IMG/VR virus record: IMGVR_UViG_3300012005_000004
Coordinates: 1 to 64,000 of that record
DNA: 64,000 nucleotides
DNA from: a virus
Reading direction: 5' to 3' (one strand)
In this document: one piece after another, positions 1,671 to 64,000 of the stretch
Numbering within the stretch: position 1 is the first letter of the stretch
Layout of the letters: the number at the start of each line of letters is the position of its first letter
Notes under the pieces: model-generated
What the model was told of the DNA's origin: nothing
Databases searched by the model: none
The model's input: only the letters and a program-made list of their open reading frames with translations
Made by a program: the position numbers and the translations under genes

Positions 1671-1874
1671 ATGAAAGCCCGCATTACCATTAGGATGCCC
1701 AATCATTGTCTTGAGAAAATCACGCTCGCCGCTTCGATGCTTGGAGTAACCGTCAATGAATTCATTCTCGAAGCCGCCTTAGCTAAGGCGGAAGAGGTTT
1801 TGGCACATGAAGAAATAACCATGAAGCTATTTGGTATGTGTAAGCTTCTTGATGGAGTTCCAGATGAAATTTGA
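1671..1874 (+). CDS. DUF1778 / TacA-like ribbon-helix-helix antitoxin-like protein (orphan)
   Basis: RITIR...KITLAASMLGVTVNEFILEAALAKAEEVL matches DUF1778 pattern. Confidence 0.7.
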   Translation: MKARITIRMPNHCLEKITLAASMLGVTVNEFILEAALAKAEEVLAHEEITMKLFGMCKLLDGVPDEI

Positions 1875-1886
1875 GATAGGAAAATA

Positions 1887-2330
1887 ATGAAAGCTGATGT
1901 TAAACAACTCTGGCTAGAAGCCCTCCCTAGGTACAAGCAAGCTAAGAAAGCTCTACGAGACAACGAAGATGGTTTTTGTTGTCTAGGTGTAGCTTGCGAT
2001 ATCTATAAAGAGTTCCATCAAGGTTCTAGATGGAGTGAACCTGATAATAATTTTCGAGATAATCATGGTGGCCTAGGAGTTGGGACACCGACGATTGATG
2101 TTATCAGATGGATGTTCGATGAAGAAGATATGCCTGGATTTCACCGCGGCCAGTTGATAAATCGAGAAATTGAGCTTCCATTTCATCCGAGAAAGTTTAG
2201 CAGGCTCGATGTTAATAGGGAAGATTTTTCTAATGACAAATCATTTGAGCAGTACGTGACTCTAGCTAGCGCCAACGATCACGGTTGTACGTTTGACCAG
2301 ATCGCCGACCTGATCAAACATTTCCTTTAA
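1887..2330 (+). CDS. Phage hypothetical protein
   Basis: FCCLGVACD and LASAND.G.TFDQIAD.I motifs common in phage ORFs. Confidence 0.7.
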   Translation: MKADVKQLWLEALPRYKQAKKALRDNEDGFCCLGVACDIYKEFHQGSRWSEPDNNFRDNHGGLGVGTPTIDVIRWMFDEEDMPGFHRGQLINREIELPFHPRKFSRLDVNREDFSNDKSFEQYVTLASANDHGCTFDQIADLIKHFL

Positions 2331-2692
2331 GCATCATCTGCATGACGGGTGAGGAAGTTAACTCTGATCTTTCTAGGATCAAAGTACTTCTTCACCACAT
2401 CTATTACGGTTTGATTGTCATACACCTTGCATGAAAACACATCAAAGTAAGCGGTTCCGTCTAGCTCCATGAAGTGTCCACAGATGTTTGACGTGGTGAT
2501 CAGCTGCATTAAGCTGTAACCTTGCTTAGGATCTCCTGGGAGCAAGTACTCGATGATCGGCTCGCCGTGAGCTGTCATGTCGATCTCTTTCACAAGCTCT
2601 TTGATGAAATTATAAAGCGTGTCGCGGCTAGCGATTCCATCGTTGCAACCTGAGCAATCAAGCATCAGGTGGTACCCCCAGTATCCAGACAT
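2327..2692 (-). CDS. speD: S-adenosylmethionine decarboxylase proenzyme (phage type)
   Basis: GYHLMLDC, GYS..QLITTSNICGHF (pyruvoyl-forming Ser), YFDVFSCK. Confidence 0.85.
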   Translation of the reverse strand: MSGYWGYHLMLDCSGCNDGIASRDTLYNFIKELVKEIDMTAHGEPIIEYLLPGDPKQGYSLMQLITTSNICGHFMELDGTAYFDVFSCKVYDNQTVIDVVKKYFDPRKIRVNFLTRHADDA

Positions 2693-2715
2693 AGCGTTTC
2701 CTTAAAGGTGAATAT

Positions 2716-3777
2716 TTAATCGTCTTGGTCGCCGAGGATGTAATTTACCCAGGTTGTTCGAGTGTTGATCCCGAACATCAACAAGTTTTGACGATTCCAA
2801 GCGCAGTAATATCCACGATTTTCCCAGAGCTGATTCAACTTTGAGAGGATATCAGCGCTAGAGGTAGGATCTGCGTAGATGGGATATGTCCAATTGATCT
2901 CGCTCGAGGTGAGAACCGGACAACCCACCGCGACCGCATCTGCAGCAACGATATTAAACGTTTCAGTAAATGAAACTTGCATGCAGACATCCATGCTACG
3001 AATGATGTCTAAAAATTCGTCATGTCCTGTCCAATTATGTTCGACAAGCTCATGCTTGGTGTGGGCGAACAACGCGCGCAAATTGTTCAACATACTTTGT
3101 CCGCTCAGCTCAACCCTACCTGCATTGATGTGAAAACGTAGAATCTTATGATGTTCTTTGGCCCAAGCGATCGCGGCCATAGCTTGCACCATGTGATTCT
3201 TCATCGGTCGAATAGCTCCGAAGCAACCAACATCATAGTAGCGATCGCTATTATTGGGACGGTGAGTAGCGACCTCTGGGACCGGATAGAAATTTGGCAA
3301 CAACGGAACCATCTCTTCGATGTCTTCTTCCTCGAAATCAGCGAGAGATTCACGAGCCATCATCCTTAACTCTTCGTTGATCCTCGGAGAGTTACCTGAA
3401 ACGATCACTCCCTTCGTAAGATACTTGAAGGTCCAATCGATCGCGATTCCCTCTTGGGCTAAGAATGGCATCTCACTATGACAGCGAACGATCCACTCGA
3501 CCTTCGGGTGTAGCGGCATCAGCTCATCAAATTTCTCAGGAATTACCCAGTATCCTTCAATGAAGACGTGAGTGGGTTTATACGCCGTGACTTCTCGGTC
3601 AATGTCATTGTTATCAACAACTACCACGACGTGTGAGTGAATGCCTTTGGTCTTCAGCATGTTAGCTACAAAAGTAGCTGAGTTGAACATACCTGTAGCG
3701 ACCTGCTTGTGATCAGCGTTTGGAATATCGGACGAGTAGTCCTGACGTTGCTTCAAGATAAAAAGTGCTCGTGCCAT
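2716..3777 (-). CDS. Glycosyltransferase, GT-B fold (GT4-like)
   Basis: FGAIRPMKN and QVSFTETFNIVAADAVAVGCPV motifs; start MARAL with AAGGA SD. Confidence 0.8.
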   Translation of the reverse strand: MARALFILKQRQDYSSDIPNADHKQVATGMFNSATFVANMLKTKGIHSHVVVVVDNNDIDREVTAYKPTHVFIEGYWVIPEKFDELMPLHPKVEWIVRCHSEMPFLAQEGIAIDWTFKYLTKGVIVSGNSPRINEELRMMARESLADFEEEDIEEMVPLLPNFYPVPEVATHRPNNSDRYYDVGCFGAIRPMKNHMVQAMAAIAWAKEHHKILRFHINAGRVELSGQSMLNNLRALFAHTKHELVEHNWTGHDEFLDIIRSMDVCMQVSFTETFNIVAADAVAVGCPVLTSSEINWTYPIYADPTSSADILSKLNQLWENRGYYCAWNRQNLLMFGINTRTTWVNYILGDQDD

Positions 3778-3787
3778 ATTGTTTCCT

Positions 3788-4222
3788 TTAGTTAGTGTCT
3801 TCTTTTTTCTTGAAGACGATATCATTAGTTTCTGGTGTAAAATTAACCTTCCTACGCTTGATCTTCGGCTTTGCGTTGATCGGGTAGGTGAACAGCTTTC
3901 CTATCACCCTTGATGTAGAGTTAAGGTTGAAGGTCTTCAAGATCTTACGGGCTACGTCGCTTTGTCCCAGCTTTGCGAATTCAAACGAAAGCGGATAACG
4001 ATCAGAGGCTCCGTAGAACCAGATCGTAGCAACAGAGAGGAACCAATCTTGGTTTACCCCCTCGGCGGCAAGTTGATCTAATACGTAAGCTTGGATATCA
4101 TCCTCAACTACGTTCTCGATCACCGTCAAGTATTTAACTCTTTTGTACTCGATCAGCGTAAGAAACTGGAGGTTTTGCGGTTCTTCCAAGCTTTCGAATA
4201 TCAATGGTGGTGCTTTGGCCAT
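3788..4222 (-). CDS. Hypothetical protein
   Basis: First gene of minus-strand operon behind ATAAATA box. Confidence 0.7.
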   Translation of the reverse strand: MAKAPPLIFESLEEPQNLQFLTLIEYKRVKYLTVIENVVEDDIQAYVLDQLAAEGVNQDWFLSVATIWFYGASDRYPLSFEFAKLGQSDVARKILKTFNLNSTSRVIGKLFTYPINAKPKIKRRKVNFTPETNDIVFKKKEDTN

Positions 4223-4252
4223 GTTTGTTCTCAATGTTATTGATTATGCTAC

Positions 4253-4259
4253 TATTTAT
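4253..4259 (-). promoter_or_regulatory. T4-type late promoter box
   Basis: ATAAATA on minus strand upstream of hyp-GT-speD operon. Confidence 0.55.
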
Positions 4260-4272
4260 CTCACCTTCTTTT

Positions 4273-4302
4273 GTTTACAATTGGAGCATCTTAGTTTAGA
4301 AT
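4273..4302 (+). promoter_or_regulatory. Early-type promoter
   Basis: GTTTAC-N18-TAGAAT. Confidence 0.7.
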
Positions 4303-4342
4303 TACATCTTCAAATCAAACATTCTTTGAGGATTCCAACCAA

Positions 4343-4669
4343 ATGGCAACTACCGCGCAAGTCATCGACTTTCTCAAATCTAAAGGATCCCAAGGAGCCG
4401 CTTACAGCGAGATCCAACGTTTCGTGGTTGAAGCTAATGGCCGCGATTATGATGTGCGCGACAGCGAAGGACGGCGCCTGTATCGTGGTTACTGGAGTAA
4501 TAGTCTATCTGGAAGCTCTACTTATGGAAAAACAGGACTGCTCGCCGAATATTGTGTCAAGGTTGGAAAGAACTATGTCCTCAAGAATGCTCCAGCCCAA
4601 GCTCTAGCTGCGGTCGCAAGCTTGGTTTCCACACCAACCCAAAAGCTGATGACGATTAAGGTTTCATAA
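4343..4669 (+). CDS. Hypothetical protein
   Basis: GAGGA SD, follows promoter. Confidence 0.7.
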   Translation: MATTAQVIDFLKSKGSQGAAYSEIQRFVVEANGRDYDVRDSEGRRLYRGYWSNSLSGSSTYGKTGLLAEYCVKVGKNYVLKNAPAQALAAVASLVSTPTQKLMTIKVS

Positions 4670-4903
4670 ATGACACCAAACACTAAGCTAGAAGTTGGAA
4701 CGTTAGTCCAGCTTAATTCAGAAACTTGCCGCAACCGTATGTTTGCCGCATGCATCATGACCGTCACCGAGCCGAAGCCATTTGGCGCCCAGGGTTACGT
4801 GCAATCTCTTGGAAGCAACGGTGAACCTGGTGGCCAAGCATACTACCGCGCCGAGTGGGTAGAGATGGAAGTTGTAGGTAAGGCCGAGTGGGTGGTAGAA
4901 TGA
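4670..4903 (+). CDS. Hypothetical protein
   Basis: Abuts upstream stop codon, ATGA overlap downstream. Confidence 0.7.
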   Translation: MTPNTKLEVGTLVQLNSETCRNRMFAACIMTVTEPKPFGAQGYVQSLGSNGEPGGQAYYRAEWVEMEVVGKAEWVVE

Positions 4904-5985
4904 AGAAGCTATTCACTGGGTTGTACGGCTCGAGCTTATACGGCACCAACGGTCCGGAGTCAGACCGTGACGTTCGGCACATCGTCTTACCTGACATCGA
5001 TGACCTATTGCTAGGTCGTAAGATCGTCACCGTCGAAAAGAAGACCAACCAGCAGAAGAACACCAAGAACACCAAGGATGACGTAGATGAAAAGTTCATT
5101 CCGCTTCAGGTTTTTGCTAATGAGTTTCTCAACGGACAAACTGAAGCGCTTGAGCTTGCCTTCTCGATAGAAGGAGATCACACCGAACAAACCTTCTACG
5201 GAGCCTTTGAGCTCCAGACTAAACTGGAGACGATGAAGTACTATCGTGATCGCGGAGACGATGCTCACCGCACCGCGTGGATGTTTCATCAGTTTGTTCT
5301 TGAGCTCCGCGAGAAGTTCTTAACGTCGAACATGAGATCGCTGGTCAGCTACGTCGTCAATCAATCCAAGCTCTATTCGCTCAAGGGAACTAGGCTGAAC
5401 GCCTGCCGTTCGCTTAGAGAGGTGCTAGAAGATATCGAAGAAGTTACCCCCGAAGCGACGCTCGGATCTTGCATGGAAACTCACAGTAGGCTTCTGTTCA
5501 TGGGGATCGAAGCTACATACCCATCTTGCTTTTCAATCGGAGATTATGATGCCTCCAACGAAAACAGAGCTCCATGTTTCAGGATCTTAGGGAAAGTTTT
5601 ACCGCACACCAACACGGTCCGTCACACGCTAGGAACCGTTGATACGTTGATCACCGGATATGGGGATCGCGTTAAAGAAGCCTCAAAGACCGAGGTAGAT
5701 TGGAAGGCGACGATGCACGCCATGAGAATCGTCGATGAAGGGATCGAGCTTCTGACCTACAAAAGGCTTCAATTCCCGCTACCACAAGCTCAAGTTGAAC
5801 GGCTCCTAAAAATTCGCCGTGGTGAAGAAGATATCGTCGACATCAAGGAAGAGTTCAATCGGAAGGTGGACCTCATCGCTGAGCTTGAGAAGGTATCTGA
5901 CATACACAAGTATTCAGAAGAGCTAAAATCAGAGTTCAACGTTTGGTTGACTCAGTGGTTGCATAAATTTTATGGAGTATCATGA
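4900..5985 (+). CDS. Pol-beta superfamily nucleotidyltransferase (RlaP/Nuc-transf-like)
   Basis: GSSLYGT..PESDRD (GS...DxD) and C-terminal DWKA.MHA.R helical domain. Confidence 0.8.
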   Translation: MKKLFTGLYGSSLYGTNGPESDRDVRHIVLPDIDDLLLGRKIVTVEKKTNQQKNTKNTKDDVDEKFIPLQVFANEFLNGQTEALELAFSIEGDHTEQTFYGAFELQTKLETMKYYRDRGDDAHRTAWMFHQFVLELREKFLTSNMRSLVSYVVNQSKLYSLKGTRLNACRSLREVLEDIEEVTPEATLGSCMETHSRLLFMGIEATYPSCFSIGDYDASNENRAPCFRILGKVLPHTNTVRHTLGTVDTLITGYGDRVKEASKTEVDWKATMHAMRIVDEGIELLTYKRLQFPLPQAQVERLLKIRRGEEDIVDIKEEFNRKVDLIAELEKVSDIHKYSEELKSEFNVWLTQWLHKFYGVS

Positions 5986-6191
5986 ACGTTGATATCAATG
6001 AGCTTAGAGAGCTAATGGCTCGCATCGATGAGATCAATAAGGTAGACATTGATCAGATAACCTGGATTGAAGATGGTAAAGTAGTCGAGATTAATCCCAT
6101 TACTAGGAAAAATTGGGAGTATTGTGGCTTATCAAACACGTGGTTTATCAAGACTGGAGCATACAAGGAACAAGATGAAAAACTTTTTTAA
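5982..6191 (+). CDS. Hypothetical protein
   Basis: GGAG SD, ATGA overlap. Confidence 0.65.
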   Translation: MNVDINELRELMARIDEINKVDIDQITWIEDGKVVEINPITRKNWEYCGLSNTWFIKTGAYKEQDEKLF

Positions 6192-6705
6192 ACGAGTTAA
6201 ACGTTTGTTTAGTAAAGAAATCATTCTGTTTGGCGATAAGCCGGTGAGCACCGAGAAAAATCAATTTATTCTTGGTAACCTTGATCGGGCTATCAGGTTG
6301 ATTGAATCTATCCCACAAGAGAAGATTAGCCTCTATGCTTTCAAGCAAGAAACATCTGATTGTGGAACCTTATTTTGTGCGGCTGGACACCTAGCCCAAG
6401 ATCCATATTTTATAGGTCTCGGCATGAAATTACAACTATTTGGAAAAACTTGGATAGTAATATCAACTAATGATAATTCATCTGATGATAATCTAAGTAA
6501 CTTATTTGGGCCTTGGGCTTTTGATACTTTATTTGCTCGCTACGGTGAAGGGCGTAGAGATAAGAGTTCCACCGATCTCTACCGGCTGTCGTTGGGTTCC
6601 GACTACCATCGGACATTTAAGAAACATATGTCTGACAAAGCTCTTTCATTAGCCAGGTTACGATTACAGCGCGATGAAATTGTTTCTCAACTTAATGGAG
6701 AATAA
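6175..6705 (+). CDS. Hypothetical protein
   Basis: CGTLFCAAG motif; AAGGA SD before ATG 6175. Confidence 0.65.
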   Translation: MKNFFKRVKRLFSKEIILFGDKPVSTEKNQFILGNLDRAIRLIESIPQEKISLYAFKQETSDCGTLFCAAGHLAQDPYFIGLGMKLQLFGKTWIVISTNDNSSDDNLSNLFGPWAFDTLFARYGEGRRDKSSTDLYRLSLGSDYHRTFKKHMSDKALSLARLRLQRDEIVSQLNGE

Positions 6706-27043: not shown

Positions 27044-27553
27044 ATGGAACTATTAAAAGAACTCATCAAAATCCGCGAAGCGAATGACGAGGTGCTGTGT
27101 GAATCAGTCACTGAGTATCTCGCCACGGTTATCGCCTACCTCAAGTCTAAGAAGCATGAGGACCTATTCAACACCGAGAAGCCGCTGATCAAGGTTGACC
27201 ATCTTGCTTCGATCGTGGCCGGTCTAAGAGTTTTGTCTGACATAGAGCACCGCTCGATCCTGACCAAGGATGACATCCACATCAACCCGAACAACTCCCA
27301 CAACCTTTATGACTTCATGGACTCCTTCCCGAAGAACGGTAAGGGAACCCCAGCTTTGACTCTCAAGGTCCTCAAGGCCCTCAAGGAAGTTTCTCCTAAG
27401 ACCTTCGCGTCAGAGCTTCAAAAGTTTAAGGGATTGAAGACTAAGAATGATGCCGAGCGCGGAAAGCTGACGACCGAGCTAGAAAAGTTTGCAGCCAACG
27501 TAGGAACTATGTTCAACAAGGTTCGCTCTATCCATAATGGAGATGAGGACTAA
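27044..27553 (+). CDS. Hypothetical late protein, possible virion internal protein
   Basis: N-terminus MELLKELIKIRE resembles T4 capsid-targeting leader. Confidence 0.65.
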   Translation: MELLKELIKIREANDEVLCESVTEYLATVIAYLKSKKHEDLFNTEKPLIKVDHLASIVAGLRVLSDIEHRSILTKDDIHINPNNSHNLYDFMDSFPKNGKGTPALTLKVLKALKEVSPKTFASELQKFKGLKTKNDAERGKLTTELEKFAANVGTMFNKVRSIHNGDED

Positions 27554-54408: not shown

Positions 54409-55794
54409 ATGAGTAACGAGATCTACTACACCAGCCATGATGGTGGTGCTACGCTCTTTATGGACGGAAAGCTGAAGTCAATCTCCAGCGATCACCCAAA
54501 TTTCATGAAGATCATGAGCGCTCTCAAGGCAAAGTCATATGACTTGGCCATCAAGCTCATGGACATGGTAGGAACCATCAATGATATTGGATCAAATGTT
54601 TCCAAGAAGTTTGTTGGTCGTAGAGTTTTTGTCGAAGGTGAAACGGTTTACTTCACGGATGAAAATGGCAAACATCATGTCTTGCACGGTACTCTTGTTG
54701 ATCGCATCATCGATGATATCGGTAAGCCATCTGGACAAAAATATGCAGATGCTCTCTTGGCTCTTCAAGATAACATCATGCGCAACACTCGCAAGGATAT
54801 TCGCGAAGAGCTGTATGAGTTCTTAATGTCTGGAAAGACGCCGATCACGATGGATGGTTGCTTCCTGGCTTACAAGAAGGTAAAGGCTGCAAACAAGCAA
54901 GGTCAATACCTTGACATCTACTCTGGAACTATGGATAACGCGCCTGGTAAGATTCCGCGTATGGATCCAAAAGATGTCGACGCAGATCGGTACCGAGAAT
55001 GCTCTCGAGGACTGCATTTCTGTTCTCGTGGTTATTTGAGTCACTATGGAAATGGAGATGGAGATGATTCATCTGTAGTTATGGTGGTGAAGGTCAATCC
55101 AAAGGATGTGTTTGCAATTCCTACGGATTATTCATTCCAAAAAGGTCGGGCATCTGAATATTATGTGGTAGGTATGGTTAATAAGGGACACGATCTTTCC
55201 AAAAGTGACGTGTTCAAGGATTCTTTTATCGATGAAGATAGCAAGGAAGCTTCGGCACCGAATGTTACATTCAAGGCGCCTCTCAAGGCTGGCTTGCAAA
55301 CTGTTGGCGAAAGCTATGGTTTGATCAACGATGGAAAATGCTTGGTCATCGAACAGAACGGAAAATATGTTCCAGTTAGATCAGCTTCATTCACCGGTAA
55401 GGTAGATGCTCCTGGTGCCGATCAAGTGAAGCATCGGTTGGGTAAGGTTATCATGGAGATGTTTGAATTGGCTTCATTTGAAGTTACGAGTGACCTTACT
55501 CTTGAACAAGTTGGTGGCGATTCGCTAGATGCGGTAGAGCTAGTTATGGCGATCGAAGATGAGTTTGAGATTGAGATCTCCGATGATGATGCTGAAAAAT
55601 TCCACACGTCAATGGATATTCTTAACTATCTGCTCAAGGTGAATAAGATCTTTCCACCGAATAAGTATTCTTATGTTGATGTTCTTGGAACTCCAGTTAC
55701 CGGAGAACCGAAACTCATGTCATTTGAAACGAAGTCGGTTCGTCAGTCAGTAAAAGAAGCAGTACAAAAAGCTCAAGGATCTGTTAAGAGTTAA
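54409..55794 (+). CDS. rIIB: rIIB-like protein with embedded acyl carrier protein domain
   Basis: HPNF, IT.DG.FLAYK.V, CS.GLH, V.VNP.DV..IP.DY; ACP at about aa 338-410 with GGDSLD. Confidence 0.9.
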   Translation: MSNEIYYTSHDGGATLFMDGKLKSISSDHPNFMKIMSALKAKSYDLAIKLMDMVGTINDIGSNVSKKFVGRRVFVEGETVYFTDENGKHHVLHGTLVDRIIDDIGKPSGQKYADALLALQDNIMRNTRKDIREELYEFLMSGKTPITMDGCFLAYKKVKAANKQGQYLDIYSGTMDNAPGKIPRMDPKDVDADRYRECSRGLHFCSRGYLSHYGNGDGDDSSVVMVVKVNPKDVFAIPTDYSFQKGRASEYYVVGMVNKGHDLSKSDVFKDSFIDEDSKEASAPNVTFKAPLKAGLQTVGESYGLINDGKCLVIEQNGKYVPVRSASFTGKVDAPGADQVKHRLGKVIMEMFELASFEVTSDLTLEQVGGDSLDAVELVMAIEDEFEIEISDDDAEKFHTSMDILNYLLKVNKIFPPNKYSYVDVLGTPVTGEPKLMSFETKSVRQSVKEAVQKAQGSVKS

Positions 55795-56746: not shown

Positions 56747-58867
56747 ATGCAACGGATTTATAAGGATAATGCCGTGTTGCGAGGCATTATCGAAAACACC
56801 ATGGATGCGATCATCGTCATTAACGATGATAATAAAGTAGTAGAATGGAACAAGTATGCCACTGATTTATTTGGATATACCCAAGATGAAGCTATCGGTA
56901 GATCATTATCTTCTCTGATTATACCAGATACGTTCATTCCTCACCATGAGGCATGCGTTAATCGAGCTGTCCAAAATCAAAAAGATCATTGTTATCTTAG
57001 AACTGAGATGGATGCACGCAGAAAAGATGGTTGTAAGCTCAAAATTGAGCTTACAGTTTCTCAGATAACTCTAAAAGATCAAAGCGGAATAAAGAATAGT
57101 TTGTTTAGCGTAGCAATACGTGATATCACAGTTCAAAAGAATAGTCAAGACCGTGTGATTCGCCAAGCTTCTCTTTTAGATCTTTCGCGTGATGGTATCT
57201 ATGTTATTGATAAAGATCAGAGGTTGACTTGGTGGAATAAGGGGGCTGAGCTGCTCTACGGATATTCCACTGATGAAGCTATCGGTCATATAGCTTATGA
57301 ATTGTTACAAACAGATTACCCACTAAGTGGTAGGAATGCCTTTGAAGAGATCTTTCAAACACTTCTACATTCTGGTTCTTGGGAAGGGGAGTTGACGCAA
57401 CTCACAAAAGACGGTAATCGCGTTACAGTTCTCAGCCGTTGGGTACTTGATATCGAATATGATGAAGTGTTAATAACTAATACCAATATCACAGAGCTAA
57501 AACGAAATCAAGAAAAAATCGAATATCTCGCTACGCATGATGATCTCACTGGTTTGCCAAACCGTCGGTTGCTAGAAGATAGAATAAACCATGCGATAAT
57601 CCAATGTGAACGAAATGGTGGTCACGTTGGTGTTCTATTCTTAGACCTTGATCGTTTCAAGATCATAAATGATTCGCTTGGTCATGACATGGGAGATAAA
57701 CTACTCAATGAGGTTAGTCAAAGATTAGTCAAATCAGTGAGACGTGAAGATACCGTAGCTCGTCTAGGTGGAGATGAATTTGTAGTAGTTCTTGAGAATG
57801 TATCAAATATTGAAGATATAGCTGAGATCTCTTCCAAGATACTGAATTCTATTCAACAACCTATTTCATTGGGAGAAGGTGCTGGGAAGAGCATCTCAAT
57901 CAACACTAGCATTGGTGGTTCCGTCTACCCAAAAGATGGCCTAGACGTTATCACATTGATGAGGAACGCTGATTTAGCTATGTATAAGTCTAAAGAATAT
58001 GAAATGGGGGCATTTCGTTTCTACAGCCCAGAGATGAATGAGTTAGTTCTTCAACGACTGACAAATGAAAATAATTTAAGAAAAGCATTGAATAATGAAG
58101 AATTCATTCTCCATTTTCAACCGAAGATCTGTAGCGCAGAAGGGCGTACCACCGGTGTTGAAGCATTGATTCGATGGAACCACCCAGAAAAGGGTTTAAT
58201 CATGCCATCTGAATTTATTGGATTAGCTGAAGAGATCGGGTTAATCAATAAAATTGGTGAGTGGGCTCTATACGCAGCGTGCGAGCAAAATAAAGCATGG
58301 CAAAATATGGGATTGCCTCTCATACAGATGTCAGTAAACTTGTCAGTGCACCAGCTCACGCCAAATTTAGTTAACATCGTATCAAAAGCGTTGAAAATGT
58401 CTGGCTTAGATCCAAAGTGGTTAGACCTAGAAGTTACCGAATCTGCTGCGATGAAAGATGTAGACATGACGATTGAAACCTTAGGTAAACTTCGAAAGCT
58501 TGGTGTGTCAATCTCTATCGATGATTTTGGAACTGGATATTCATCTCTAGAATATCTTAAAAAGATGCCGTTAGATAACTTGAAGATTGATCAATCATTT
58601 GTTAGTGGCATTCCAACAGATTCTAATGACCTTTGTATCGTGGCTGCAATCATTGGTCTGGCTCATAACATGAAGCTACGAGTGATCGCTGAAGGAGTGA
58701 CATCTAAAGAACAAGTTGCGTTCTTAGACACACACAAATGTGATGAGATGCAGGGTTACCTATTCAGCCGTCCAGTGACAGCTGAGGACGTAGAGCAAAG
58801 GTTGATCGGTCAAGTTTGGAGCTACCCATACCAAGGAAATCATGAACTACGAACGTGCGATGATTGA
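56747..58867 (+). CDS. PAS-PAS-GGDEF-EAL diguanylate cyclase / phosphodiesterase
   Basis: Two PAS domains; D.LTGLPNR, DLDRFK.IND..GH..GD, RxxD I-site, GGDEF; EALIRW, DDFGTGYSS, KID, AEGV, QGYLFSRP. Confidence 0.95.
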   Translation: MQRIYKDNAVLRGIIENTMDAIIVINDDNKVVEWNKYATDLFGYTQDEAIGRSLSSLIIPDTFIPHHEACVNRAVQNQKDHCYLRTEMDARRKDGCKLKIELTVSQITLKDQSGIKNSLFSVAIRDITVQKNSQDRVIRQASLLDLSRDGIYVIDKDQRLTWWNKGAELLYGYSTDEAIGHIAYELLQTDYPLSGRNAFEEIFQTLLHSGSWEGELTQLTKDGNRVTVLSRWVLDIEYDEVLITNTNITELKRNQEKIEYLATHDDLTGLPNRRLLEDRINHAIIQCERNGGHVGVLFLDLDRFKIINDSLGHDMGDKLLNEVSQRLVKSVRREDTVARLGGDEFVVVLENVSNIEDIAEISSKILNSIQQPISLGEGAGKSISINTSIGGSVYPKDGLDVITLMRNADLAMYKSKEYEMGAFRFYSPEMNELVLQRLTNENNLRKALNNEEFILHFQPKICSAEGRTTGVEALIRWNHPEKGLIMPSEFIGLAEEIGLINKIGEWALYAACEQNKAWQNMGLPLIQMSVNLSVHQLTPNLVNIVSKALKMSGLDPKWLDLEVTESAAMKDVDMTIETLGKLRKLGVSISIDDFGTGYSSLEYLKKMPLDNLKIDQSFVSGIPTDSNDLCIVAAIIGLAHNMKLRVIAEGVTSKEQVAFLDTHKCDEMQGYLFSRPVTAEDVEQRLIGQVWSYPYQGNHELRTCDD

Positions 58868-61080: not shown

Positions 61081-62517
61081 ATGAAGACCAACGCAAAGGC
61101 AGTAAACAACCGTCGCACCGAAGGTGGTGCACGTGCATCGGCGATCACGCCGGAACAAGAGCTGCGCCGTCAAGTAATGGCACTGATGCTGTGGGAAAAT
61201 GGCGGACAGACAGAAAAGAATGTCGCATCGCTGATCCCGAAGTGTCGGCCAGAGTTCGTGGCCGCGTGCGCGTTCGAAGCTCGCACGAAGATGAAGCTGC
61301 GCCACGTTCCGCTGTTCATCGCGCGCGAGATGGCTCGGCACCCAGAGCACAAGTCCCTGGTGGGTAAGTTGCTGCCTGACCTGATCAACCGTGCCGATGA
61401 GATCAATGAGTTCATGGCGATCTACTGGAAGAACGGTAAGACCCCGATCTCGGCGCAAGTCAAGAAGGGTTTGGCCGCAGCTTTCAAGAAGTTCGGTCCG
61501 TATGCGCTGGCGAAGTACAATAAGACCGACATGGCCATCAAGATGCGTGATGTGATGTTCTTGACTCACGCTAAGCCTGCCGATGCTCCTGGTGACAAGT
61601 ACACCAAGGAAGTTCGTAAGGCTGAACGTGCTGGACAAAAGGCTCGTCAGCTGACCAAGGGCGAAAAGCTGTTCTCGGACTTGATCAATGACAAGCTGGA
61701 AACTCCTGACACATGGGAAACCAACCTGTCGGCTGGTGCAGACAAGAAGGAAACGTTTGAACGATTGATGTCTGAAAACAAGCTGGGTGCATTGGCATTC
61801 ATTCGTAACCTGCGGAACATGGTTCAGGCTGGTGTGAGCCGGCAGGCTATGAAGGAGTACGGAGCCAAGGTAAACTTGGAATACGTGCTGCCGTTCCGGT
61901 TCTTGTCAGCAGCTCGTCAAGTTCCAGGAATGGAAGACCTGTTGGAGCCGATGATGTTGCGTTGCCTGGAAGGTCAACCGAAGCTGCCGGGTAAGACCGT
62001 GCTGATTCTCGACACTTCTGGTTCGATGCACGCCGGAATCTCGGGCAAGTCTGACCTGACTCGTTTGGACACGGCCGCAGCGCTGGCGATCTTGGTTCGT
62101 GAAATTTGCGAAGATGTCGTCATCTACTGTACCGCAGGTTCGGATGGAGCACGTCGTCACGCTACCATGCAGATCCCAGCACGTCGTGGATTTGCGCTGG
62201 CGGATTACATCCGTAGCAATGAAGTTCAAGGCAAGATCGGTGGTGGCGGTATCTTCTTGAAGCAGTGCCTGGACTTCGTGGAAATGAACGAAAAGACGGC
62301 AGACCGCGTGATCACGTTGACCGACGAGATCGACTGCGATGACAAGGCGTCTCCGGAGGGAGCTTCGACTTTCGGTGAGAACAACTACATCATCAACGTC
62401 GCTACGCAGGCTAACGGTATCGCGTACTCGAAGTTCACGCACATCAACGGTTGGAGCGAAGCTGTAATCGACTTCATCCGCGTGCTTGAAGAAGACCAAG
62501 CGGCTGAATTGCAGTAA
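61081..62517 (+). CDS. rsr: Ro60/Rsr TROVE-domain RNA-binding protein with vWA domain
   Basis: T.EGG.A, R...KLRHVP, RADE, F..Y.LAKY, PDTWET.LS, AFIRNLRN, LPFRF, DTSGSM, GWSE. Confidence 0.93.
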   Translation: MKTNAKAVNNRRTEGGARASAITPEQELRRQVMALMLWENGGQTEKNVASLIPKCRPEFVAACAFEARTKMKLRHVPLFIAREMARHPEHKSLVGKLLPDLINRADEINEFMAIYWKNGKTPISAQVKKGLAAAFKKFGPYALAKYNKTDMAIKMRDVMFLTHAKPADAPGDKYTKEVRKAERAGQKARQLTKGEKLFSDLINDKLETPDTWETNLSAGADKKETFERLMSENKLGALAFIRNLRNMVQAGVSRQAMKEYGAKVNLEYVLPFRFLSAARQVPGMEDLLEPMMLRCLEGQPKLPGKTVLILDTSGSMHAGISGKSDLTRLDTAAALAILVREICEDVVIYCTAGSDGARRHATMQIPARRGFALADYIRSNEVQGKIGGGGIFLKQCLDFVEMNEKTADRVITLTDEIDCDDKASPEGASTFGENNYIINVATQANGIAYSKFTHINGWSEAVIDFIRVLEEDQAAELQ

Positions 62518-62601
62518 TGTTTTACGCATGGCACATGCGTACAAGTCCCCTGGATAAGAGATGGAATGTGCTAACAGAGGTCGGTTTACCATTCACCTCT
62601 T

Positions 62602-62735
62602 GGATGTGTAGCTCAGGTTGGTAGAGCGTCTAGTAGGAAAGCCCGGACGTTGATCCCATGTGGAAGCGCATGGAGTAGTCGCGGTGTAGCAAGTACAAAT
62701 GAAGGTCGCAGGTTCGACGCCTGCCACATCCGCCA
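62602..62735 (+). ncRNA. tRNA-scaffold RNA with Y-RNA-like stem replacing the anticodon arm (134 nt)
   Basis: Acceptor GGATGTG/CACATCC+G+CCA, D arm GCTC/GAGC, T arm GCAGG-TTCGACG-CCTGC; 74-nt folded insert at 62629-62702. Confidence 0.8.
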
Positions 62736-62977: not shown

Positions 62978-63213
62978 TGATGACCGATAAAGATATTCAA
63001 TTCTTGAAAGAGCAGGTAAAGAATGGTGAGAACGTGTGTTATATCGATGATGACGGTAAGCGTCTTTTAGTATCCTCTGTGAATCTAAACTGGGTAGAAT
63101 TCCCAGATGAACCAGATCTAAAAGAACCAGCCGCCATGCTAGTTGGTAGCGTTCCTGTAGCTTTATTGAACGTTGAGCTGAGTTCTTTCATGAAATTGGT
63201 ACCTCTAAAATAA
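62977..63213 (+). CDS. Hypothetical protein
   Basis: TAATG overlap. Confidence 0.6.
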   Translation: MMTDKDIQFLKEQVKNGENVCYIDDDGKRLLVSSVNLNWVEFPDEPDLKEPAAMLVGSVPVALLNVELSSFMKLVPLK

Positions 63214-63225
63214 TTTCATAAAGTA

Positions 63226-63255
63226 GTTTACTTTTCTAGAAAGACAAGATATAAT
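63226..63255 (+). promoter_or_regulatory. Early-type promoter for an RNA-only unit
   Basis: GTTTAC-N18-TATAAT. Confidence 0.75.
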
Positions 63256-63269
63256 ACTTCCATAGCATA

Positions 63270-63344
63270 AATTCTTAAGTAAGAGCGATCTTAGTAGAGA
63301 TACACTGTTAACATTAGCAGTACTAAGGCTCTTACTTAAGAATT
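63270..63344 (+). repeat. Long leader hairpin
   Basis: Perfect 17-bp AATTCTTAAGTAAGAGC/GCTCTTACTTAAGAATT plus inner CTTAGTA/TACTAAG and CTGTTAA/TTAGCAG. Confidence 0.8.
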
Positions 63345-63409
63345 CAGGTGGCGTAGATAACGGTTACTTCACTTCCAAAGAAACCAACCGTTCTCGCTTA
63401 GTTCCCCTG
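63345..63409 (+). ncRNA. Minimal Y-RNA-like RNA lacking tRNA module
   Basis: CAGG/CCTG end stem, TGGCGTAG...TTAGTTCC internal region, AACGGTT/AACCGTT stem, pyrimidine-rich loop; near Ro60 gene. Confidence 0.6.
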
Positions 63410-63415
63410 TAATAT

Positions 63416-63495
63416 GGTTCCGTAGCTCAATGTTAGAGCGCCTGGTCCCTTTGCGGACAGGAGATAGTGGAGTTCAAATCTCTCTCGGATCCACC
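63416..63495 (+). tRNA. Atypical tRNA-like element (anticodon undefined)
   Basis: GGTTCCG/CGGATCC acceptor (one mismatch), GCTC/GAGC D stem, 21-nt anticodon arm, TTCAAAT T loop, ends ACCT. Confidence 0.55.
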
Positions 63496-63520
63496 TAAAT
63501 TTGTAATTTTTGTGAAGTCT

Positions 63521-63690
63521 TATAAATAAACCTGTTATGAAAAACTTTGTTTCCTTACTGTCGCTTAGTTATTGGTCATTGTCCTACCTTGGACAAGGCC
63601 TTGATGTACCGACTGAAGGATGGGATTTGTAGGAACCCACAAAGATTCAGCAGGTTTATCAAGGCTCCGCAAGGGGCCTTAATTGTTTCT
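63521..63690 (+). promoter_or_regulatory. Late promoter + leader peptide + attenuator-like alternative helices
   Basis: TATAAATA; uORF 63537-63632; antiterminator 63597-63610/63653-63666; terminator AAGGCTCC-gcaa-GGGGCCTT. Confidence 0.6.
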
Positions 63691-63791
63691 GGAGATAGAA
63701 AATGGATTGTGATCATGGATATCTTCTGGGCAATGGTTTGGGTGTTGTGGATAGCGATGATAGCTTCGCTGATCAGCACTGATTAAAATAT

Positions 63792-63874
63792 CTTCGACTG
63801 GCTAATACAAACTGGCACAGTTAGCGTCCTCAAAAGTCGCGCCTCTATCGGTTCGAATCCGATGTCGAAGACCA
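63792..63874 (+). tRNA. tRNA-Leu(CAA), atypical
   Basis: CTTCGAC/GTCGAAG+A+CCA; GCGTC-CTCAAAA-GTCGC; ATCGG-TTCGAAT-CCGAT; enlarged D region, short variable loop. Confidence 0.75.
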
Positions 63875-63885
63875 AAGTAGTATAT

Positions 63886-63976
63886 GGATCTCGCAAGTAA
63901 GGATGGGTGGTCCCGTCAGCCGGCTGTAACCCGGTTCCTATTAGGCAAGGCGTTCAACTCGACCCGAGATCCACCA
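63886..63976 (+). tRNA. tRNA-Tyr(GTA), atypical Sec-like fold
   Basis: 8-bp GGATCTCG/CGAGATCC+A+CCA; 6-bp D stem with TGGT loop; GCCGG-CTGTAAC-CCGGT. Confidence 0.75.
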
Positions 63977-64000
63977 AAATGTATCAGTAGACCCTTAAGG

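Follow-up and report, generated by a model that had tools for sequence, protein, structure and literature searches.

A candidate leader-peptide attenuator ahead of the Leu/Ser/Tyr/Trp tRNA genes of a large soil phage

Question and sequence analysed

Why does a 31-codon open reading frame (ORF) rich in leucine, serine, tyrosine and tryptophan codons lie, together with three overlapping RNA helices, directly in front of phage tRNA genes for only these four amino acids? The window analysed here comprises the first 64 kb (64,000 nucleotides) of an 80,369-b soil viral record, which is rated about 22% complete by CheckV. The record carries rIIA, rIIB, a DNA ligase, a helicase, an endolysin, and HNH and GIY-YIG homing endonucleases, and is therefore assigned to a large phage of the wider T4-like world with no close relative in GenBank. 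According to the original prediction, the region 63521-63690 is a candidate translation-coupled attenuator of the trp/leu type, in which ribosome stalling on Leu/Ser/Tyr/Trp codons, for example after the action of host anticodon nucleases, would permit read-through into replacement tRNA genes. The sequence features on which this proposal was based were all confirmed; the proposed mechanism was supported only in part, as set out below.

Anatomy of the leader region

All features described here lie on the + strand. The element TATAAATA is located at 63521-63528 and is followed by 8 nt (aacctgtt) and an ATG at 63537. The ORF (63537-63632) comprises 31 codons plus TAG and encodes 7 Leu, 5 Ser, 2 Tyr and 2 Trp; codons 6-18 (63552-63590; SLLSLSYWSLSYL) are exclusively Ser, Leu, Tyr or Trp codons. 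No Shine-Dalgarno sequence (GGAG, GAGG or AGGA) precedes it.

Helix 1:2 is formed by 63574-63584 and 63591-63600 (-12.4 kcal/mol). Helix 2:3 is formed by 63597-63610 and 63653-63666, with 13 of 14 positions paired, two of them as G-U (-17.7 kcal/mol for this core), and is extended by CUGAA (63613)/UUCAG (63646) and UGGG (63621)/CCCA (63636). Segment 2 thus spans 63597-63617 and pairs with segment 3 (63646-63666), whereas the UGGG/CCCA pairing closes a small hairpin (63621-63639) that holds the TAG stop codon in its loop. The predicted terminator hairpin 3:4 (63661-63680; 8 bp, GCAA loop, -12.8 kcal/mol) was also listed by a terminator scan. It is followed by the tail AATTGTTTCT (63681-63690), which is only moderately U-rich and is interrupted (AA, then TTGTTTCT); the tail scored -2.42, against -3.2 to -4.4 at seven other terminator-like hairpins of this genome, and is weaker than those at the gene-end terminators of the phage.

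The region is strongly structured (z = -4.98; 0 of 200 shuffles folded as well). Two points of the original prediction had to be corrected. Firstly, the minimum-energy fold is one long rod of 134 nt (63526-63659) followed by the 3:4 hairpin; helix 1:2 forms its apex, and its base is a perfect 9-bp pairing of ATAAACCTG (63526-63534, overlapping the promoter motif) with CAGGTTTAT (63651-63659), which had not been noted. Secondly, the two genes named as tRNA-Leu(CAA) and tRNA-Tyr(GTA) are non-canonical (see below).

Codon run and tRNA complement

The 13-codon Ser/Leu/Tyr/Trp run is the longest in all six frames of the 80-kb record; the next longest comprises 8 codons, and 0.002 runs of 13 or more are expected. 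In the ORFs of the phage these four amino acids account for 19.9% of codons. The run is frame-specific, as the other two frames of the same bases read a mixed sequence or hit a stop.

Every tRNA detected in the record carries one of the same four amino acids, well beyond the two genes originally noticed. At default thresholds, Trp-CCA (twice), Ser-GCU, Leu-UAA, Leu-GAG and Leu-CAG were found by ARAGORN, and Leu-UAG by Rfam (38.9 bits). At lowered thresholds, Tyr-GUA (63981-64065), Ser-UGA (64090-64179; Rfam, 20.4 bits) and Ser-CGA were added, as well as Ser-GGA at the 70% threshold only and with the lowest confidence. The run contains 11 distinct codons and touches 10 of the 11 isoacceptor classes, although this diversity is not significant by itself when compared with the codon usage of the phage (P = 0.18 and 0.08). 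The Tyr part of the match rests on low-threshold or non-canonical tRNA calls; with default-threshold tRNAs only, 11 of the 13 codons match.

Promoter motifs and translation start

Only two sites of TATAAATA, a T4-late-type promoter element, occur in 80 kb, both just 5' of an ATG. The motif ATAAATA occurs 12 times, and 10 of these sites lie 4-30 nt upstream of the ATG of an ORF of at least 140 aa on the same strand (background probability 0.012; binomial tail 4e-18). These ORFs include the endolysin and the HNH and GIY-YIG endonucleases; in T4 such genes are typically late genes. The motif therefore behaves as a promoter element in this phage, although the figure for the family does not include the site at 63521.

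The 169-aa ORF at 27044 shares the ATAAATA-N8-ATG geometry without a Shine-Dalgarno sequence, and three other ORFs have a spacing of 4-5 nt, which implies leaderless mRNAs if transcription starts about 6 nt after the motif, as in T4. By the same analogy, the start site of the leader is inferred near G63534, which would leave a 3-nt, and thus not truly leaderless, 5' leader. The absence of a Shine-Dalgarno sequence contrasts with 38 of 76 long ORFs in this genome, which have a strong one.

The shared geometry, the prediction of the ORF by a gene caller in the public collection and a terminator-like hairpin within 30 nt of the stop codon are also compatible with an ordinary small late gene without a sensing role, encoding a peptide with a serine/leucine-rich amphipathic N-terminal half and an acidic tail and having its own weak terminator; phages encode many orphan small proteins. 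This reading is considered unlikely: the peptide has no relative among 1.84 billion representative proteins, and the alternative 2:3 pairing, the position of the stall-sensitive window inside the run and the match to the tRNA island would all be coincidences.

An early, sigma-70-like promoter (TTTACT-17-TATAAT) was identified at 63227-63255, and the form TTTAC(T/A)-N17-TATAAT recurs at 65539, 66596 and 67762. Its transcripts would enter the element from upstream. No other strong promoter-like site lies on the + strand between 63681 and the second TATAAATA at 64202, and no early-type promoter occurs before 65539; the hairpin therefore sits on the only early route into the tRNAs.

Ribosome-masking fold analysis

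The nascent transcript 63534-63680 was folded with a partition-function model in which a ribosome footprint was forced to be single-stranded at each A-site codon. Terminator probability was about 1 without a ribosome and with the A site on codons 1-9 or 18-32, including the stop codon. Across codons 10-17 (CTT, AGT, TAT, TGG, TCA, TTG, TCC and TAC) it dipped as low as 0.02-0.13, lowest at codons 11-13; every codon from 11 to 17 fell below 0.5 under at least one footprint, but individual codons, notably 14 and 17, stayed high under some footprints. All five footprint definitions placed the dip in the same codon window. Helix 2:3 takes 63661-63666 from the terminator, so that the two structures are mutually exclusive. 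When the upstream 127 nt were shuffled and the terminator was kept fixed, any such switch was seen in 10 of 376 cases, and a stricter criterion was fulfilled by 2 of 256, that is, in 1-3% of cases.

The switch was confined to transcripts starting at the TATAAATA promoter. With the 5' end at 63500, as in a transcript from the early promoter, terminator probability stayed at 0.76 or higher at every ribosome position, because the 9-nt sequence at 63526-63534 (the 5' lock) holds segment 3; the predicted late start site leaves this lock out almost exactly.

A structured non-coding RNA must be considered as an alternative. In this view, the rod and the GNRA-capped hairpin form the 3' end (terminator, stabiliser or RNase III-type processing site) of the early transcript that carries the Ro60-associated hairpin, the Y-like RNA and the tRNA-like RNA, and the ORF is incidental and never translated. 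The minimum-energy fold is a plain rod, as in many stable phage RNAs, its base uses 9 nt outside the ORF, the AUG lies inside the rod and lacks a Shine-Dalgarno sequence, the surrounding 1.5 kb is packed with structured RNAs, and the terminator is constitutive in the model for upstream-started transcripts. However, the frame-specific codon run matching the downstream tRNA set, the alternative 2:3 helix and the placement of a validated promoter motif such that its transcript omits the lock are left unexplained. The element matched no Rfam family, and it lacks the motif that recurs next to Ro60 genes in other contigs. This alternative is therefore regarded as rather unlikely, but both readings can hold, as early transcripts may use the element as a plain terminator.

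A chance arrangement without function beyond spacer DNA between RNA genes is regarded as improbable. The element is a single sequence without relatives or expression data in the collections searched, its terminator tail is weak, and rare patterns will turn up when very many windows are read, as in the first-stage scan from which it came. Against this, several independent low-probability features (the run, the switch and the fold) coincide within 170 nt, directly upstream of a four-amino-acid tRNA island, and the promoter family is itself well validated.

Downstream RNA genes

The first RNA gene after the hairpin (63790-63874) is tRNA-like, with a 7-bp acceptor stem, a canonical T arm, A73, an encoded CCA and a candidate anticodon loop CTCAAAA (CAA), but its D and anticodon region is aberrant. 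It was found by ARAGORN only at the 85% threshold and was then folded differently, with anticodon tta; no Rfam hit was obtained. The second (63886-63978) has an 8-bp acceptor stem, a 6-bp D stem, a non-canonical T arm, the anticodon loop CTGTAAC (GTA) and an encoded CCA, and matched the Rfam tRNA-Sec model with 18.3 bits, well below the gathering score. Both genes were missed by ARAGORN at default settings and by Rfam at gathering score. They are followed by the Tyr-GUA gene, found by ARAGORN at the 85% threshold, and by Ser-UGA.

The second TATAAATA at 64202 lies in front of the Seg-like GIY-YIG gene and can feed the canonical Trp/Ser/Leu array (64910-65527) late without passing the switch. 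The genes under exclusive control would thus be the four non-canonical tRNA-like genes at 63790-64179, and read-through would only add to the expression of the rest. The endonuclease gene is of a mobile kind and may be a later insertion that split one array, which is an inference.

Searches for relatives and transcripts

A blastn search in distant mode against 50,697 GenBank phages returned only a 54-nt promoter-region match and single tRNA matches, and an exact 28-mer search of IMG/VR returned nothing. The element, the peptide and 11 neighbouring ORFs were compared by blastn, nhmmer and tblastn with 113 Ro60-linked loci from IMG/VR and JGI metagenomes, without any hit. The peptide formed a cluster of one among the 1.84 billion representative proteins, and the neighbouring 78-aa ORF found only itself among 5.8 billion clusters. 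Conservation, covariation and expression evidence is thus lacking. The stretch was found in no RNA sequencing run, but in four DNA runs of one soil study, two of which are probably its source. The DNA contigs showed no variant in the element, and runs matching it only in part carried identical fragments or unrelated tRNA matches.

To assess generality, codon-matched short ORFs were sought within 450 nt upstream of 36 tRNA blocks in the Ro60-linked phage contigs. No enrichment over a set-swapped control was observed, and a run-based version of the same analysis also found nothing.

Proposed mechanism

With about even confidence, the element is read as a ribosome-mediated (leader-peptide) transcription attenuator working on a near-leaderless late transcript, which would raise transcription of the tRNA genes when Leu, Ser, Tyr and Trp codons are decoded slowly. 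RNA polymerase would start about 6 nt after TATAAATA, and a ribosome would load on the AUG at the 5' end. If the codons are decoded quickly, the ribosome would run on to the TAG at 63630; behind it, the codon-run arm, which forms the 5' arm of the rod and so would act as the anti-antiterminator, would re-pair with segment 2, leaving segment 3 free to form the 3:4 hairpin, and transcription would stop near 63685. If the ribosome waits with codons 10-17 in its A site, it would cover the arm that normally holds segment 2; segment 2 would then pair with segment 3, and polymerase would read on. Read-through would first reach the four non-canonical tRNA-like genes (a CAA-like one, two with GUA anticodons, and Ser-UGA) and, with no terminator in between, could continue through the Seg-like homing endonuclease gene into Trp, Ser-GCU, Leu-UAA, Ser-CGA, Leu-GAG and Leu-CAG. 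Transcripts entering from the early promoter carry ATAAACCUG, which would lock the 5' half of segment 3, so that they would always terminate.

The helices and their mutual exclusivity, the uniqueness of the codon run, its match to the tRNA set and the positional validity of the promoter motif were established in silico, whereas the start site, translation of the ORF, actual termination, the dependence of read-through on translation and charged-tRNA level, and the physiological trigger are inferred. The trigger would be tRNA shortage, possibly after host tRNA-cutting defences have acted; this is plausible in view of recent work (PMC10264068, PMC11555353, PMC13096335) but, like the anticodon nucleases of the original prediction, is pure inference. 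More tentatively, the element might be a self-referential tRNA-supply gauge, in which the ORF samples almost every isoacceptor species encoded in the island and, only on late-promoter transcripts, opens the terminator when any of these tRNAs runs short; structurally aberrant back-up tRNAs, which may resist cleavage, would thereby be switched on after host tRNA-cutting defences have acted, and the promoter-embedded lock would keep early transcripts from ever reading through.

Comparison with known systems

Leader-peptide attenuation is a textbook mechanism for amino-acid biosynthesis and a few other protein-coding operons; no published case in which it controls tRNA genes was found in the literature searched. 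As in the attenuators of the trp, leu, his and phe operons, a short ORF with clustered control codons is combined with three overlapping helices (putative anti-antiterminator, antiterminator and terminator here); stalling on the control codons would free segment 2, and termination would be the default with or without translation. As in the multivalent thr and ilvGMEDA attenuators, several amino acids would be sensed at once. The present element differs in that the genes to be regulated are tRNA genes, related to the sensed amino acids through tRNA supply and not biosynthesis, and in that it sits in a phage, has no Shine-Dalgarno sequence but an inferred near-leaderless start from a late-type promoter, samples four amino acids across 10 isoacceptor classes, carries a promoter-embedded 9-nt lock that makes upstream transcripts non-switchable in the model, and has a weak U tail.

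Leaderless polycysteine short ORFs act as cysteine-responsive attenuators in mycobacteria (bioRxiv 10.1101/834739) and provide a precedent for a short ORF at the very 5' end of a transcript that, without a Shine-Dalgarno sequence, senses decoding of a specific codon set and controls downstream operon expression. That system is bacterial and controls cysteine metabolism genes; here, a 3-nt leader is inferred and the output would be a terminator placed before tRNA genes. The nearest published control of a tRNA array is that of the Anabaena trn operon, a long supplementary array on a cellular megaplasmid that is silent until translation is stressed (PMC8421152) and is controlled by the repressor protein TrcR (PMC10272220); attenuation, a leader peptide or a terminator is not mentioned in the 2021 paper. 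T-box riboswitches also switch between terminator and antiterminator in response to tRNA status, but bind uncharged tRNA directly and have no ORF; neither a T-box nor any other Rfam family matched the element, at gathering score or at E values up to 10. In the T4-type tRNA region with the SegB homing endonuclease, a GIY-YIG endonuclease likewise sits inside the tRNA cluster, and Tyr tRNA candidates lie near the present element; defences that cut tRNA-Tyr and phage tRNAs that rescue infection have been reported (PMC13096335, PMC11555353, PMC10264068). No attenuator is described for those clusters, and here the tRNA set is restricted to Leu, Ser, Tyr and Trp, with several structurally aberrant members.

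If the model is correct, a phage would measure decoding speed directly and answer by making the matching tRNAs, which would give a regulatory logic to the long-debated question of why phages carry tRNAs and would link it to the recent discovery of host defences that cut tRNAs and of phage tRNAs that rescue infection. The element would also be a compact, portable sensor of tRNA availability.

Surrounding RNA island

Nine ORFs in and around the tRNA island (62699-71560) have no PHROG family, and no leader-like ORF lies ahead of the second tRNA-Trp at 68630. A Y RNA (YrlA) identity was rejected for the element, as the weak YrlA hit (62559-62659) and the motif that recurs beside Ro60 genes (63338-63408) both lie outside 63521-63690. 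In order along the + strand, the island holds a Ro60/TROVE gene (61081-62517), a tRNA/Y-RNA-like chimera (62559-62735), the early promoter, a perfect inverted-repeat hairpin (63268-63346), the Ro60-associated motif, a weak tRNA-like RNA (63416-63492; 28.4 bits), the element itself, and a row of tRNA genes with an RNase P RNA-like gene and, 8 kb further on, a permuted tmRNA.

Ro60 gene and candidate Y-like RNAs

Within window positions 61081-62735, a phage Ro60/TROVE gene (Pfam TROVE, 5e-12) is followed, 42-85 nt after its stop codon, by an RNA that was matched by both the YrlA model (20.7 bits) and the tRNA model (38.6 bits over 131 nt); this RNA looks like a tRNA/Y-RNA chimera with encoded CCA. 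A motif of roughly 70 nt (window 63338-63408) recurs close to Ro60 genes in at least five other viral contigs (L011, L014, L023, L028 and L030), with 76-92% identity over 25-68 nt, and is a candidate Ro-binding Y-like RNA core.

Promoter elements

The early promoter region (63207-63260, within the window stretch 63207-63346) is 87-89% identical over 54 nt to a stretch in 88 phage records, nearly all of which are Klebsiella and Raoultella phages of about 165 kb, and is followed by a perfect 17-bp inverted-repeat hairpin (63268-63346). A repeated early promoter form, TTTAC(T/A)-N17-TATAAT, was found at genome positions 63227, 65539, 66596 and 67762, where it heads successive units of the RNA island. 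ATAAATA behaves as a late-type promoter element: sites were located across the whole record at 4259(-), 27029, 34971(-), 55871, 60445(-), 63522, 64203, 67174, 70228(-), 73425, 74407 and 76241, and 10 of these 12 lie just before long ORFs (p=4e-18). Three sites have a spacing of only 4-5 nt, which implies leaderless mRNAs, and one sits at the 5' edge of the tmRNA gene.

RNA genes and short ORFs of the RNA island

All tRNA genes found in the 80-kb record are Leu, Ser, Tyr or Trp (genome 63790-68704, corresponding to 1791-6705 in the numbering of locus L004). Several of them are non-canonical, with enlarged D arms combined with short variable arms, 8-bp acceptor stems, or an ATCGTTA T loop. An RNase P RNA-like gene (genome 66107-66499; L004 4108-4500) lies directly after a Leu-UAG tRNA; it was matched by the bacterial class A model at 72.9 bits, below the gathering score of 100. 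A permuted tmRNA (Rfam tmRNA_permuted, 123 bits) was identified at genome positions 74409-74736 (L004 12410-12737) and encodes the tag peptide ANEAFFGKFALVA. Two short ORFs follow the putative terminator, at window positions 63691-63786: one (63702-63782) has 26 aa, is acidic and has a good GGAG-N7-ATG start, whereas the other, which overlaps it (63715-63786), has 23 aa and is tryptophan-rich and hydrophobic. This region also folds into hairpins.

Protein-coding genes

The rIIB homologue (window 54409-55794) carries a C-terminal stretch (residues about 360-410) that matches acyl carrier protein families (PHROG 5934, 3.6e-13). A full PAS-PAS-GGDEF-EAL protein (EAL 3e-70, GGDEF 5e-46) is encoded at window positions 56747-58867.
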